This document shows positions 12,584 through 50,894 of a DNA stretch of 51,722 nucleotides, in pieces. The DNA is from a virus. Its lineage: Duplodnaviria; Heunggongvirae; Uroviricota; Caudoviricetes. A program made the translations under genes and the position numbers. The notes beneath the pieces were generated by a model, which was not told the DNA's origin, did not search any database, and saw only the letters and a list, made by a program, of their open reading frames with translations. The stretch is taken from the IMG/VR virus record IMGVR_UViG_2579778650_000023. One strand, given 5' to 3'. How positions within the stretch are numbered: the stretch's first letter is position 1; each line of letters opens with the position of its first letter.

Positions 12584-12603
12584 TACTGTATATTCATTCA
12601 GGT
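12584..12603. promoter_or_regulatory. LexA (SOS) box in the divergent ssb-uvrA control region
   Basis: TACTGTATATTCATTCAGGT (CTGT-N8 with a degenerate right half) between the divergent ssb and uvrA starts; matches the known uvrA operator. Confidence 0.8.
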
Positions 12604-23870: not shown

Positions 23871-24863
23871 TTAACGCTTATCCGCCACCAGTTTGAGCGC
23901 GTGTTCCAGCACATTAATGTCTGCACCCGCTTTATGGGCATTTTCACTTAAATAACGCCGCCACTGCCGCGCGCCAGGAATACCCTGGAACAAGCCCAAC
24001 ATATGCCGGGTAATATGGCCGAGATACGTCCCCTGGCTGAGTTCACGCTCAATGTACGGATACATGGCGCGCACTACCGCCACCGGATCGGCATCGGTAT
24101 CCGAGGAACCAAAGATCTCCCGGTCTACTGCCGCCAGAATACCCGGATTCTGATACGCCTCGCGCCCGACCATCACGCCATCCATATGTTGCAGGTGTGC
24201 TTTGGCCTCTTCCAGCGACTTGATACCACCGTTAATCGACATTGTCAGATGCGGAAAGTCACGCTTCAGTTGATACACACGCGGATAATCGAGCGGCGGG
24301 ATTTCACGGTTTTCTTTCGGGCTTAACCCCGAAAGCCAGGCTTTACGTGCGTGGATGATAAACATCTCACACTCGCCTTTGCCGGAAACAGTGTTGATGA
24401 AATCGCAGAGAAATTCATAGCTGTCCTGGTCATCGATGCCAATACGCGTTTTCACCGTCACTGGAATCGACACCACATCGCGCATCGCTTTCACACAGTC
24501 GGCAACCAGCTGCGCATTACCCATCAGACACGCACCAAACATGCCGTTCTGCACCCGGTCAGACGGGCAGCCGACATTCAGGTTGATCTCATCATATCCG
24601 CGCGCTTCTGCCAGCTTTGCACACTGCGCCAGCGCCGCCGGATCGCTACCGCCCAGTTGCAACGCTACCGGATGTTCTTCTTCACTGTACGCCAGATAAT
24701 CACCTTTACCGTGAATAATCGCCCCTGTGGTCACCATTTCGGTATACAGCAACGTATTGCGGGAAAGCAGACGCAAGAAATAGCGGCAATGTCTGTCCGT
24801 CCAGTCGAGCATAGGAGCAATGCTAAACCGAGAATTCCAGTAAACACCAGTTTTTTCAGGCAT
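23871..24863 (-). CDS. dusA: tRNA-dihydrouridine synthase A (about 330 aa; the six-frame ORF allows a start at 24908)
   Basis: [29 protein letters not shown]..., TIM-barrel Dus motifs (NLNVGCPS); the 5' end lies at the prophage junction. Confidence 0.93.
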
Positions 24864-24941
24864 CACGCTGGTTTGATTAATTTTTTGTGTTTCATGATTA
24901 TCGTGCATTTTTGAACATTTCAGGCTATTTTTCTCGCGTTA

Positions 24942-24996: not shown

Positions 24997-26094
24997 ATGG
25001 CGTACTATAACATAGAGAAACGACTAAAATCCGATGGCACACCACGCTATCGCTGTAATGTGATTATCAAAGAAAAAGGTGTTATCACTTACAGGGAAAG
25101 CAAAACATTCCCTAAACATGCTCATGCCAAAACATGGGGCACACAGAAAGTGATGGAATTAGATCTATATGGCATTCCATCATCAAATGCAGTTGACGGA
25201 CTTACAGTCCGTGACTTACTACACAAATATTTAAATGACCCAAATGCCGGAGGTAAAGCAGGCCGTACTAAAAGATATGTGCTGGAACTGCTTATGGATA
25301 GTGACATCTCCGCGATCAAACTATCTGAACTGACAGAAAATGACGTAATTGAACATTGCAGGCTAAGAAACAACGCTGGTGCAGGTCCAGCTACAGTTAG
25401 CCACGATGTTAGTTATCTTGGCAGTGTTCTGGATGCTGCCAAACCTGTATATGGAATTAATTACACATCAAACCCAGCAAAAGCCGCTCGTCCATATCTA
25501 CTTAAACTTGGGTTAATTGGTAAATCAAATCGTCGTAATCGTAGACCGGCATCTGATGAACTGGACATGCTCATTGAAGGTCTTCAACAACGATCTACAC
25601 ATAAATGCTCAAAAATTCCGTTCGTTGATATCCTCAAATTTTCTGTGTGGTCATGTATGCGAATCGGTGAAGTATGCCGATTACGATGGGAGGATCTCGA
25701 TCAGGAACAAAAATCCATACTCGTAAGAGACAGGAAAGATCCACGTAAAAAGGAAGGCAACCATATGAAAGTAGCCTTGCTTGGGGAAGCCTGGGATATC
25801 GTCCAACGACAACCCAAAAAATCAGAATTCATTTTTCCATATAACAGCACTTCTGTTACTGCGGGATTCCAGAGGGTAAGAAGCAAATTAGGTATTAAAG
25901 ATCTGCGATACCATGATTTGCGTAGAGAAGGGGCAAGTCGCTTATTTGAGGCTGGTTTTAGTATTGAGGAAGTCGCCCAGGTTACAGGGCATCGTTCATT
26001 AAACGTGCTATGGCAGGTATATACCGAACTGTATCCGAAATCTTTACATAATCGTTTTGAAGAGCTCCAAAGGAGCAGAAATAAGACCTCTTGA
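24997..26094 (+). CDS. int: Phage tyrosine integrase (dusA-associated integrase type, 365 aa)
   Basis: Integrase-family C-terminal motifs (MRIGEVCRLRWEDLD; HDLRREGASRLFEAG; QVTGHRSLNVLWQVYTE with catalytic Tyr); positioned at the dusA 5' end. Confidence 0.9.
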   Translation: MAYYNIEKRLKSDGTPRYRCNVIIKEKGVITYRESKTFPKHAHAKTWGTQKVMELDLYGIPSSNAVDGLTVRDLLHKYLNDPNAGGKAGRTKRYVLELLMDSDISAIKLSELTENDVIEHCRLRNNAGAGPATVSHDVSYLGSVLDAAKPVYGINYTSNPAKAARPYLLKLGLIGKSNRRNRRPASDELDMLIEGLQQRSTHKCSKIPFVDILKFSVWSCMRIGEVCRLRWEDLDQEQKSILVRDRKDPRKKEGNHMKVALLGEAWDIVQRQPKKSEFIFPYNSTSVTAGFQRVRSKLGIKDLRYHDLRREGASRLFEAGFSIEEVAQVTGHRSLNVLWQVYTELYPKSLHNRFEELQRSRNKTS

Positions 26095-26142
26095 CACTGT
26101 TTATCCATACAGCTAAAAATAATACTGTATACAAACACAGTA
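26091..26142 (+). promoter_or_regulatory. SOS-regulated promoter with two tandem LexA boxes upstream of the dinI-like gene
   Basis: -35 TTGACA (26091-26096); LexA box 1 CTGTttatccatACAG (26097-26112) in the spacer; -10-like TAAAAA; LexA box 2 TACTGTATACAAACACAGTA (26123-26142). Confidence 0.7.
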
Positions 26143-26155
26143 TAGAGGGACTTTT

Positions 26156-26404
26156 ATGCGTATTGAAATCTGCATAGCCAAAGAAAAAATGACTAAAATG
26201 CCAACCGGTGCTGTGGATGCGTTAAAGGAAGAATTAACCCGACGCATCAGTAAACGTTATGACGATGTAGAGGTGATCGTAAAAGCCACCAGCAACGATG
26301 GCCTTTCTGTTACACGCACCGCAGATAAGGATTCTGCAAAAACTTTTGTTCAGGAGACTCTGAAAGATACCTGGGAATCTGCTGACGAGTGGTTTGTTCA
26401 CTAA
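26156..26404 (+). CDS. DinI-like DNA-damage-inducible protein (82 aa)
   Basis: [11 protein letters not shown]...[18 protein letters not shown] closely resembles DinI (MRIEV...ILQETWESADDWFV); GAGGG Shine-Dalgarno. Confidence 0.85.
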
Positions 26405-26815
26405 TTAACACGTAAAATCGGTAACGGCTGGAAATCATTCAATACTCGCACTATCGAAAGTTCGCCAGCCAGCCGCAGCACGTTCTTGCATACGACGTGG
26501 CTGCGGCTTCCAACATTAGACAAATAACTCTTTAAATTGCTTTCAAATTATTTCGTTTGAATGCCAGTAGCAGGAAATCGTTTATATAGGGTTTAGAGGA
26601 TGTCATGGGGAAACTGATTAATGTTAAAATGATTACTCCATTAGATAACCTATATCACCCCCTCCGACAACTCTCGGCGCAATAACCAATTTCGTCAGGA
26701 TTCCTCTGGTTTAAACGGTTCATATGCATAAAAACATTATACTCGCGGTATTTCATCCATTACTGCAGAAGGAAAAATGCGCTGGAAATTATCAAAATCT
26801 CCAGCGTACTAGCAA

Positions 26816-27022
26816 TTAACTGACTAACTCATCTTGAGGAGTAACTACATCTGGTTTTAAGGAAGGCTTGATGAATTTTTTACCGTCATATGACCAGCCA
26901 ATACCAACATCTCCAACACATTTAACTATATCCGCTTTTTCTGACTTAAACTCTGACTTACCATCCCATACAACAAGATTTGTAACGACACCATTTTGTA
27001 CGACTGCATAAATATCGCTCAT
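26816..27022 (-). CDS. Small tail-fibre-associated protein (68 aa), function unknown
   Basis: ATG overlaps the tail fibre stop (TAATG), suggesting translational coupling. Confidence 0.45.
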   Translation of the reverse strand: MSDIYAVVQNGVVTNLVVWDGKSEFKSEKADIVKCVGDVGIGWSYDGKKFIKPSLKPDVVTPQDELVS

Positions 27023-28122
27023 TACTGATACTCCCACACAAGAATATATCCCTGATTTCCATTATTTCCTGTCGCTGGACCTGATGACGCCTTATTGTAT
27101 TTACCTGTCCCGCCAATACCGTATATCCCAAGCATAGTAGTGGTTATACTTTCAACGCCAATCGCCTGATCATCACCAAGTCCAAGTGCCCCACATAAAT
27201 TTGATCGTGAAACTGAATGGAACAGAATCCCTTGCCCTGTAGGAATTGGTGCTTCTGTTGCACTTCCCCCTGAAAATGGAGGTACCTGCTGAACTTGAGT
27301 TGATCCCCTTCCTCCCGGACATACAAGCAAATCACCAAAGCTTGTATTCCCGCCGTCACCTCCAGAGCCTCCTGGTCCTGTTCCTGCTACACCACCGCTT
27401 CCAATAGTTACTTGCACGGATTCAGGTATAGACTGATAAAAAAATGCTTTAGCATATGCCCCGTTGGAACCGGCAGCACTTACACCACAGTTACCAGATG
27501 CAGTTGCCGACAAATTACCACTGGCACCACCTCCGCCAACGGCTTCCACTATAATTTTCGTTACACCAGGTGATTTGATATAAGTCCCAGATGATCCAAA
27601 TGCCTGAACCCCCAAAAGCCTTCCTGTTCCATCCCCAAGTGTTAAATATTTTAGAGTTTCCGATACGTTTTTTTTACTTAAAATTTCCCTGCCATTTTGA
27701 GTCAGCGCTGTCATATCCATTGTTCCGGCACCTGTAAAAAATGCCAGCCCATCCGGTATTCCTGTTAAGCTCGACAATGATGTCAGATTATCATTTTTAT
27801 CCTGTTTATCATTCAGAATGTCTGTCATTCCCAGGTTTTCGAGAGCCGTTTGCACAGTGCCATCCGATTTGATATCGCCAAACGGATTCTTGCGGCTTAA
27901 CAGCAGCGCACGAAGCGCGGTAAGAAGCTGATCGTGCCGCCCCTTCTCCAGGCTGGCACCGGATGCCTCCACCACGCTGCAGAGTTCTTCCTGCAACATG
28001 TCAAAGTAGTCATCATCCAGAACGGTGGCAGGCGTGCCGGTCTGGGGGTTACCACGGGTAAAACCGTTCTTACCCGCGCCGAACTTATCCTTCTGCGCGG
28101 TTTTCGTGTCTATACGATGCAT
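27022..28122 (-). CDS. Phage tail fibre protein (366 aa)
   Basis: N-terminus [47 protein letters not shown] is typical of tail fibre N-domains; Gly-rich C-terminal repeats. Confidence 0.8.
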
Positions 28123-49898: not shown

Positions 49899-50894
49899 TT
49901 ACGCCAGTACGCCTATTGCCAGCGCACGATCGATAAAACGAAATATCAGCTCCAGCTGGGAGCCATACTTCTCTTCAAATGCCACGGTATCCGCATGCAG
50001 CTCGTCGTGATGCTTTCTGCACAAAGGCAACACAAAGAGGTCATGCGCTTTTGTACCCATTCCCCCCTGACCGTGGCCTATCAGGTGGTGAGGATCATCA
50101 GCAGGCTTTCCACAACATGCGCACGGCTGTGTCTTAACCCAGCGCGTGTACTTTTCATTAACCCAGCGGCGACGTTTTGGGCGTAACATAAAAGACTCCG
50201 GCGACTCCGGATCCACTTTCAGCGCCAGCACCTTTTTCGCCTTATCCTGGATGATGCTGGTGGCAGGAACCGAAGGCACAAGGTCACTTTCCCGGGTGAC
50301 AGACGGCACAACAGGATTCGGTAATCTCAGTGCCTTACGGGCTGCGCTTTCCGGTAAGGCATCCGCCAGATCATTACGAACCAGCCACCAGCACAGTTCC
50401 GGCATTGTCACAACGTGACTGTCATCAAAACCGAGATCCCGACGCACAACAGACAACACCCAGCGGGCACAGTTATCCGTTGCCATTGATTCCAGCCGTT
50501 CCGTGAACTGATCGCGCAGCTGGTTATCGCAGTGCCAGCACAGACGGATTGCGCCCGGCGCGTGTCGCATTGTTGTCATGTTCTCGCTGTGCCAGTCGGA
50601 ATGAGGCCACTGGCAGCCTTTTTCACGAAGTAACCAGCTTTCAAGACATTCCACGCCACCAGCACGACGGATCACTGCCTCATTGCGGAACACGGCCCGA
50701 ACGGCAGGATCATCTGCCAGCGGTTGTGATGCCGCCGGTACGGCACCACTGGCGAAAGATGAATAACGTTCCGGCTCAGGCTCCAGCAGGACACGCCCCT
50801 GCATAAACAGGGGCATCAGCTCTGAACCTGGTCTGAACAATACGATCCCCATACGCGGGGCAATTTCAGGGGTCAGTAGTGCTCTCACGGTCAC
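49899..50894 (-). CDS. DUF968 domain phage protein (331 aa)
   Basis: C-terminal ...KTQPCACCGKPADDPHHLIGHGQGGMGTKAHDLFVLPLCRKHHDELH, typical of DUF968 proteins of lambdoid prophages. Confidence 0.65.
   Translation of the reverse strand: MTVRALLTPEIAPRMGIVLFRPGSELMPLFMQGRVLLEPEPERYSSFASGAVPAASQPLADDPAVRAVFRNEAVIRRAGGVECLESWLLREKGCQWPHSDWHSENMTTMRHAPGAIRLCWHCDNQLRDQFTERLESMATDNCARWVLSVVRRDLGFDDSHVVTMPELCWWLVRNDLADALPESAARKALRLPNPVVPSVTRESDLVPSVPATSIIQDKAKKVLALKVDPESPESFMLRPKRRRWVNEKYTRWVKTQPCACCGKPADDPHHLIGHGQGGMGTKAHDLFVLPLCRKHHDELHADTVAFEEKYGSQLELIFRFIDRALAIGVLA

Follow-up and report, generated by a model that had tools for sequence, protein, structure and literature searches.

Does this Escherichia coli prophage carry its own modulator of RecA under the control of the host SOS repressor LexA and, if so, how is the unit that carries this control built and where else does it occur? 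The question is raised by IMG/VR record IMGVR_UViG_2579778650_000023, a Caudoviricetes sequence of 51,722 nucleotides (nt; hereafter the window, meaning this whole stretch), in which a gene for an 82-amino-acid (82-aa) DinI-like protein stands behind two putative LexA boxes. A first-pass annotation, made from the letters alone, had noted a TTGACA −35 hexamer with a CTGT-N8-ACAG motif in the spacer behind it, a second near-perfect palindromic box just downstream, and then an open reading frame (ORF) closely resembling DinI; from this it had proposed that a prophage brings its own SOS-induced RecA modulator. Both motifs were found where they had been described (Table 1). We consider it probable that the gene and its promoter are an autonomous SOS-controlled transcription unit, which forms a mobile cassette at the integrase end of an E. 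coli prophage integrated in dusA.

The first-pass annotation had suggested scoring both sites with a LexA matrix, and this scoring bears out the boxes. We used a heterology index (HI) matrix of the Berg–von Hippel/Lewis type, in which a lower HI means a better match, rebuilt from a reference set of 26 LexA sites of E. coli; its absolute values differ from published HI. Three of the 26 sites (lexA1, lexA2, and uvrA/ssb) occur verbatim in fetched E. coli DNA, which supports the reference set. When both strands of the window were scanned, box 2 was the best site (HI 3.3) and box 1 had an HI of 5.9. The sequence TACTGTATATTCATTCAGGT at 12584–12603, between ssb and uvrA, which is the known shared uvrA/ssb LexA operator and served as an internal positive control, scored 5.4 (7.1 leave-one-out), and the next-best site in the window (50149–50168) scored 12.4. 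With the same matrix, no further LexA box of the prophage was found in the window or in the attR-side locus (L087), where the boxes of host lexA were the sole LexA sites.

The leave-one-out HI of the 26 reference sites ranged from 1.2 to 12.8 (median 7.1); on this scale, box 2 is better than 22 of them and box 1 better than 16, uvrA/ssb included. Not a single site with HI ≤ 6 appeared in 300 first-order Markov windows (15.5 Mb of simulated sequence), the lowest value being 6.66. The motif CTGT-N8-ACAG occurs twice in the 51.7 kb of the window against 0.51 occurrences expected, both times at the dinI promoter, and the match to the LexA 20-mer consensus TACTGTATATATATACAGTA extends to 17 of 20 positions in box 2 and to 14 of 20 in box 1. 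Since these scores lie outside the background and the simulated sequence holds no comparable site, both boxes are real features and not chance matches.

The arrangement of the two boxes is compact. Box 1 fills the spacer between the −35 and −10 hexamers, and box 2, which has palindromic arms and begins 3 nt past the −10 hexamer, covers the expected transcription start; the boxes end 41 and 13 nt before the ATG, and their centres are 28 bp apart in the window copy. Two −10 hexamers can be read from the run TAAAAAT (26114–26120), and the invariance of one of them, AAAAAT, among relatives favors it and, with it, the longer spacer. The layout fits repression, and LexA repression of the dinI-like promoter is likely.

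Table 1. Coordinates of the features at the dinI-like locus (positions in the window)
Feature	Position	Strand	Evidence and remarks
dusA, intact	23871–24908	−	adjoins the integrase gene
Tyrosine integrase	24997–26094	+	ORF list; Pfam Phage_integrase; RefSeq annotation
Mobile dinI cassette ("moron"), full extent	26088–26512	+	blastn extents against phage and prophage loci; five upstream contexts
−35 hexamer TTGACA	26091–26096	+	sequence; promoter scan, 10/12 matches; promoter annotated in mEp460 and VT1-Sakai
LexA box 1, CACTGTTTATCCATACAGCT	26095–26114	+	in promoter spacer; CTGT-N8-ACAG core 26097–26112; both half-sites perfect; HI 5.9
−10 hexamer AAAAAT, 18-bp spacer	26115–26120	+	promoter scan; invariant in 29 distinct upstream sequences
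Alternative −10 hexamer TAAAAA, 17-bp spacer	26114–26119	+	promoter scan
LexA box 2, TACTGTATACAAACACAGTA	26123–26142	+	HI 3.3; over expected transcription start; ends 13 nt before ATG
Ribosome-binding site GAGGGA	26146–26151	+	sequence
82-aa DinI-like ORF, RefSeq WP_001217553.1	26156–26404	+	ATG at 26156; Pfam DinI; PHROG 189; PDB 1GHH/7YWA match
Conserved 3' element	26412–26509	+	strong 38-nt hairpin at 26471–26508

The product belongs to the DinI family. It matches the Pfam DinI profile (PF06183) over positions 1–63 of 63 with 70.9 bits (cut-off 24.2), PHROG 189, "RecA filament binding protein DinI", at 5.7e-31, and E. coli DinI (PDB 1GHH/7YWA) over its full length with E = 3.7e-13. Family and full-length alignment thus agree with the resemblance first reported, but the word "closely" overstates an identity of about 40% (a global alignment, 81 against 82 aa, has 38 identities). 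With the NCBIfam equivalog model for DinI (NF007893), the protein reaches 73 bits, below the cut-off of 111, and is therefore better described as a paralogue than as host DinI. What it shares with the chromosomal protein is the fold family, the length, the C-terminal W-E-S-A-D-x-W-F helix, the residues that contact RecA, and, as predicted here, regulation by LexA.

In the cryo-electron microscopy structure of the RecA–DinI complex, DinI residues L13, L21, W71, W77, and F78 form a pocket for RecA F203, and E24, E69, and D76 face RecA K232, R243, and K245 (PMC9926225). The equivalents in the 82-aa protein are M15, L23, W73, W79, and F80 for the pocket and E26, D71, and E78 for the acidic positions, so that all eight contacts are kept, five by identical residues and three by conservative replacements. 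On this ground, binding to the RecA filament is likely and is the best functional prediction for the protein.

To what extent is LexA control a general property of such genes? We collected 211 phage DinI-like genes, reduced them to 113 different pairs of protein and upstream region, and counted a box where a site with HI ≤ 10 lay within 90 nt upstream. The family diversity comes from viral contigs searched with the DinI of phage BP-4795 and with host DinI as queries; a homologue scan of genome contigs gave only four near-identical E. coli/Shigella loci and no cross-species diversity. At least one LexA box was present in 98 of the 113 upstream regions, and the genes fall into families according to protein length. 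The 77-aa family, which is Gifsy-like, has one strong box 14–21 nt from the ATG and, nearly always, a same-strand ORF of 50–90 aa as the next gene, often with a GTG start like GftA. The 82-aa family, to which the window gene belongs, typically has two boxes, 40–42 and 12–13 nt from the ATG, and no conserved ORF downstream. The 80-aa family of Shiga toxin 2a (Stx2a) phages is preceded by another kind of sequence, in which there is no LexA box; as far as the upstream sequences tell, not every phage DinI-like gene is SOS-controlled. It should be noted that the 80-aa genes (loci L092, 1477–1719; L093; L110–L128) lie at the end of Stx2a-converting phages, where one adjoins nleC or IS629, and that HI exceeds 21 there.

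Comparison of 29 distinct upstream sequences of the 82-aa family shows how the two operators have been kept. Box 2 has ACAG in every sequence and an altered CTGT in one. Box 1 never varies in CTG or ACA; two sequences lack the last G of its ACAG. The fourth base of the box 1 CTGT is G (CTGG) in the divergent promoter lineage of BP-4795 and VT1-Sakai. When box 2 is compared between the two promoter lineages, 6 of the 20 positions differ, and all eight core positions agree (P = 0.024). Homologous cassettes in at least five unrelated surroundings upstream keep both boxes, and so does a lineage whose protein identity is only 60–63%.

Mosaic cassettes were also observed, in VT1-Sakai and in one E. 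coli copy (loci L086 and L088, compared with loci L089 and L090). These copies join a promoter and operators of the BP-4795 type (CTGG in box 1, ACCTGT in box 2) to a coding region 95–96% identical to the window protein, which indicates recombination between promoter and gene inside the cassette.

The limits of the cassette follow from the extents of homology. The left breakpoint (26088–26095) is at the −35 hexamer: a blastn search of phage genomes matched 213 records, in which the match starts there in 2H10, cdtI, CP-1639, VT1-Sakai, BP-4795, and dozens of Stx1a-, Stx2a-, and Stx2c-converting phages and extends into the integrase gene in mEp460 and SKA5. At least five unrelated sequences precede the −35 hexamer in different loci. 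On the right, homology ends either at the stop codon (26399–26408) or just past the hairpin (26498–26512). The TGA stop of the integrase gene (26092–26094) lies inside the −35 hexamer; in the window, the cassette therefore supplies the end of int, and its left breakpoint falls within the last int codons. The unit has its own promoter and a strong 3' hairpin. It is carried by siphoviral lambdoid and Stx phages and by the window prophage with its Mu-type contractile tail. Of 5,426 complete E. coli genomes, 1,798 have it, the highest number of copies in one genome being seven. A fragment in NZ_CP182136.1 (3669001–3669054) matches only window positions 26109–26164, a stretch from the last part of box 1 through box 2 to the start codon; it has no annotated gene and is possibly an orphan operator fragment.

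The sequence behind the gene has a different distribution. The 129 nt past the stop codon fold to −35.5 kcal/mol (z = −3.65), and in mEp460 and one E. coli copy a T-run follows the hairpin, which then resembles an intrinsic terminator; the hairpin element is probably the terminator of the cassette or an RNA-stabilising end. A terminator scan found no intrinsic terminator for dinI on the + strand, and the sole terminator-like site was on the − strand (26806–26780), at the end of the converging − strand tail-fibre genes. The 97-bp element at 26412–26508 also occurs without dinI, at 81–99% identity, in the lambda b region (24160–24256, between ea31 and ea47), HK106, HK75, phi80, and HK633, where the copy is annotated as attP-like and similar to the K-12 ykgJ–yagV intergenic region. 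By its distribution among these sequences, it is a generic lambdoid junction element and probably serves as a conserved terminator, or as a recombination junction, at the meeting point of early-left and late transcription. An Rfam scan of positions 25500–27200 gave only a sub-threshold CssrB match, which was dismissed (22 bits, with the gathering score at 76; E = 0.067).

Close relatives of the cassette have been sequenced before. VT1-Sakai (gene H0001, AP000400.1), mEp460, cdtI, CP-1639, SKA5, and many Stx phages have it at 91–99% nucleotide identity from the −35 hexamer to the hairpin, with an 82-aa protein, the VT1-Sakai copy being 91% identical to that of the window. In AP000400.1, H0001 is described as a "DNA-damage-inducible protein I", preceded by a "putative promoter of H0001 and H0002 genes" and a "putative SOS box" bound by "LexA protein", which is the homologue of box 2; the mEp460 record also annotates the promoter, and box 1 is annotated in no record of the homologous cassettes. 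The flanks differ, in that the window cassette follows a dusA-specific integrase gene and the 3' element of VT1-Sakai is directly followed by a YkgJ-like gene.

LexA control of a prophage dinI gene has a precedent in Salmonella. Lemire et al. reported that the LexA box beside the dinI homologue of Gifsy-1, -2, and -3 controls a damage-inducible operon and that the Gifsy DinI homologue accumulates after mitomycin C (PMC3121763); the Gifsy dinI homologues, each with one box 19 nt from the ATG, were induced 4.6- to 23-fold by nalidixic acid (PMC8072944). The window gene is like them in being a prophage-borne gene of the DinI family behind a LexA box, the Gifsy genes being damage-induced in a LexA-dependent manner. 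However, the Gifsy gene encodes a protein of the 77-aa type, has one box, and is the first gene of a dinI–antirepressor–irsA operon that triggers induction, whereas the window unit has two boxes, is monocistronic, has no antirepressor gene, and belongs to a prophage with an S24-type repressor. In particular, no + strand ORF of at least 20 aa that could be a second gene or antirepressor was found at 26404–26604.

As for the double operator, the host dinI gene has a single LexA box, but there are SOS promoters with more than one: lexA has two boxes (both confirmed in the sequence of locus L087), recN three, and the colicin genes two that overlap. The window promoter resembles these in having more than one LexA site and differs in the 28-bp distance between box centres, the sites of the known multi-operator promoters being adjacent or overlapping. 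In Salmonella, lexA, recN, and dinI are listed with several LexA boxes (PMC8072944).

From the sequence features, site statistics, conservation, and homology, we infer LexA binding, late timing, RecA binding, and any effect on induction, which together would act as follows. In undamaged cells, LexA dimers on both operators would shut off the promoter: the near-consensus box 2 over the start and box 1 between the perfect −35 hexamer and the −10 hexamer would silence it jointly, in a geometry expected to exclude RNA polymerase when LexA is bound. RecA filaments would then cause LexA self-cleavage and opening of the promoter, which probably comes late, at strong LexA depletion, because the promoter carries two good boxes. 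The 82-aa DinI paralogue would be made and would bind the RecA filament at the site used by LexA, UmuD, and CI-type repressors. LexA, UmuD, and lambda CI share this filament groove with DinI (PMC9926225), and the common groove would give a mechanistic basis for competition with an S24 repressor. Binding there could stabilise filaments and compete with the slower-cleaving UmuD and the prophage's own S24-family (YmfK-like) repressor. Any change in induction may go in either direction, by damping or by sustaining the filament, and an effect of the 82-aa protein on prophage induction is speculative.

Several observations weigh against this interpretation. The −10 hexamer is weak, whether read as AAAAAT or as TAAAAA. 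In the divergent lineage, box 1 is a poorer match (HI 8.3–11.4; 9.9 in VT1-Sakai), with an ACAA half-site in BP-4795, and it fails the HI 10 cut-off in several divergent members of the 82-aa family; the VT1-Sakai annotators marked box 2 alone. The spacing of the box centres varies from 27 to 29 bp among relatives, which makes a rigid cooperative geometry unlikely. The 80-aa family, as described above, does without a LexA box. At the other end of the unit, homology in the window copy breaks off right after the stem, without the T-run seen in mEp460, and this makes termination uncertain. DinI itself may work in vivo either by stabilising filaments or by inhibiting the co-protease, and in the only published test of an effect on induction, removal of the Gifsy dinI homologues by non-polar deletion made no significant difference (PMC3121763). 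A literature search for LexA binding or expression of DinI-like genes of E. coli prophages yielded nothing specific; a preprint naming dinI in EDL933 concerns the chromosomal gene.

One alternative is that box 2 alone works as a LexA operator, with box 1 weak or vestigial and conserved mainly by shared descent of a young promoter segment. Control would then be by a single operator, as at chromosomal dinI or in Gifsy, with no special double-operator tightness. The broken BP-4795 half-site and the high HI of box 1 in its lineage would fit this, as would the one SOS box of the VT1-Sakai record and the one box of the 77-aa phage DinI family and of the Gifsy genes; moreover, the segment with the promoter and box 1 is far more alike between lineages than the coding region, which agrees with recombination or recent shared ancestry. 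Against it stand the perfect half-sites of the window box 1, its rank above most reference sites, uvrA/ssb among them, and the lack of any equally good site in the simulated sequence, together with the invariance of its CTG and ACA, although spacers normally drift freely. We regard this single-operator alternative as unlikely. That both boxes are chance matches has one point in its favor, the AT-richness of the intergenic region, and is a negligible possibility given the site statistics and the conservation in many contexts.

Two further alternatives place the function of the unit elsewhere, and both appear very improbable, the second slightly more so than the first. The 82-aa protein might have a main role other than general RecA modulation: it might be what is left, or one part, of an SOS-antirepressor module and act on prophage repressors, or it might have no function any more. 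DinI-like sequences are indeed linked to LexA-controlled antirepressors in 186, PSP3, Fels-2, and Gifsy (PMC3121763), and the ORF that follows dinI in nearly all loci of the 77-aa family fits such a module, but in the 82-aa family no ORF is conserved there and homology stops at the stop codon or hairpin. Coliphage 186 Tum and the split tum of PSP3 and Fels-2 are, like the window gene, LexA-controlled phage genes with a DinI-like segment (PMC3121763); however, Tum has 146 aa with the antirepressor activity in its non-DinI half, and the window protein has no such half. In Gifsy, too, the antirepressor activity maps to the downstream gene and not to dinI (PMC3121763), and a prophage with a self-cleaving-type S24 repressor needs no antirepressor. 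The retention of all RecA-contact residues and of an intact cassette in a third of E. coli genomes argues for a maintained function directed at RecA. Alternatively, the key product might be an RNA, namely an SOS-induced small RNA derived from the 3' untranslated region, for which DinR from Klebsiella dinI is the precedent (PMC10907235). At the Klebsiella locus, too, a LexA box covers the start of dinI transcription and the 3' end is structured (PMC10907235), and the 3' region of the window gene folds unusually well and is about 90% conserved across phages. But the 3' element, unlike that of Klebsiella, is a generic lambdoid junction sequence, present in lambda, HK633, phi80, and others without a dinI gene or LexA promoter, which weakens the small-RNA idea; divergent cassettes end at the stop codon without it, Rfam gave nothing above threshold, and the mEp460 hairpin with its T-run resembles a plain terminator at a convergent junction.

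Overall, the proposal of a prophage-borne, SOS-controlled RecA modulator of the DinI type is supported in silico by the outlying box scores and the RecA-contact residues, along with the Gifsy and VT1-Sakai precedent. The cassette is common and already annotated as regards the gene, the promoter, and one SOS box, and LexA control of a prophage dinI has already been shown in Salmonella; what the present analysis adds is modest: it shows that a second operator, in the spacer, is conserved, places the cassette boundaries exactly, and sets the unit apart from the Gifsy operon. An active cassette would mean that one E. coli strain in three, with Shiga-toxin, cdt, and enterotoxigenic E. coli (ETEC) lineages among them, has at least one extra SOS-timed RecA modulator. 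Under antibiotic stress, such modulators could alter the induction of prophages, the release of Stx, and the level of SOS mutagenesis.

That a phage DinI limits induction of Stx phages is a conjecture that has been voiced for Stx2a phages (PMC8456039), and our literature search found no test of a phage-DinI effect on Stx phage induction. A wider possibility, which we put forward tentatively and consider unlikely, is that the stand-alone cassette with two operators is a late-SOS "RecA-filament governor" passed on horizontally from one E. coli prophage to another. Because it would enter the filament groove only once LexA is deeply depleted, it would fix the induction threshold of its own prophage and, in trans, of all co-resident prophages with CI- or S24-type repressors, those encoding Stx included, and would limit UmuD' mutagenesis, with copy number and operator strength setting how much phage and toxin different strains release.

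The window is 100% identical to the chromosome of E. coli FDAARGOS_1059, where the prophage context assumed by the first-pass annotation takes the form of a prophage of about 40.5 kb integrated in dusA. Intact dusA is followed by the integrase gene, the dinI-like gene, and then, in converging orientation, the tail-fibre, baseplate, tail, head, terminase, and lysis genes. The attR end (locus L087, 19611–19715) is marked by 105 nt of dusA, listed in the annotation as a partial pseudogene and lying about 40.5 kb from intact dusA; an intact dusA with a distal dusA fragment is typical of dusA-specific integrases, and host lexA lies about 4 kb past attR. Beyond the window, the prophage has an antiterminator, replication genes, a Cro-like gene, early-left genes, and a PrtN-family protein, and divergent from the Cro-like gene stands that of a YmfK-like repressor with a Peptidase_S24 domain (92.8 bits), which makes the repressor a plausible client of the RecA filament. 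To judge from its genes, the prophage is an e14/SfV-like temperate phage with a self-cleaving-type repressor. The isolated phage SKA5 has the same int–dinI segment at 99.1% identity.

At the attR end, a type II toxin gene of the YafO family was noted together with a hypothetical gene beside it (locus L087, 18418–18852); they lie next to the gene of the PrtN-family protein, which may be the excisionase or a regulator. In most dusA prophages with the int–dinI module, a DNA invertase/recombinase gene is adjacent and homology to the window stops at 26593. Positions 26594–28122 of the window hold instead a 72-aa ORF (PHROG 14370) and one of 366 aa that has a glycine-rich domain (Pfam Gly_rich_2), the latter appearing in RefSeq only as a partial stfP pseudogene.

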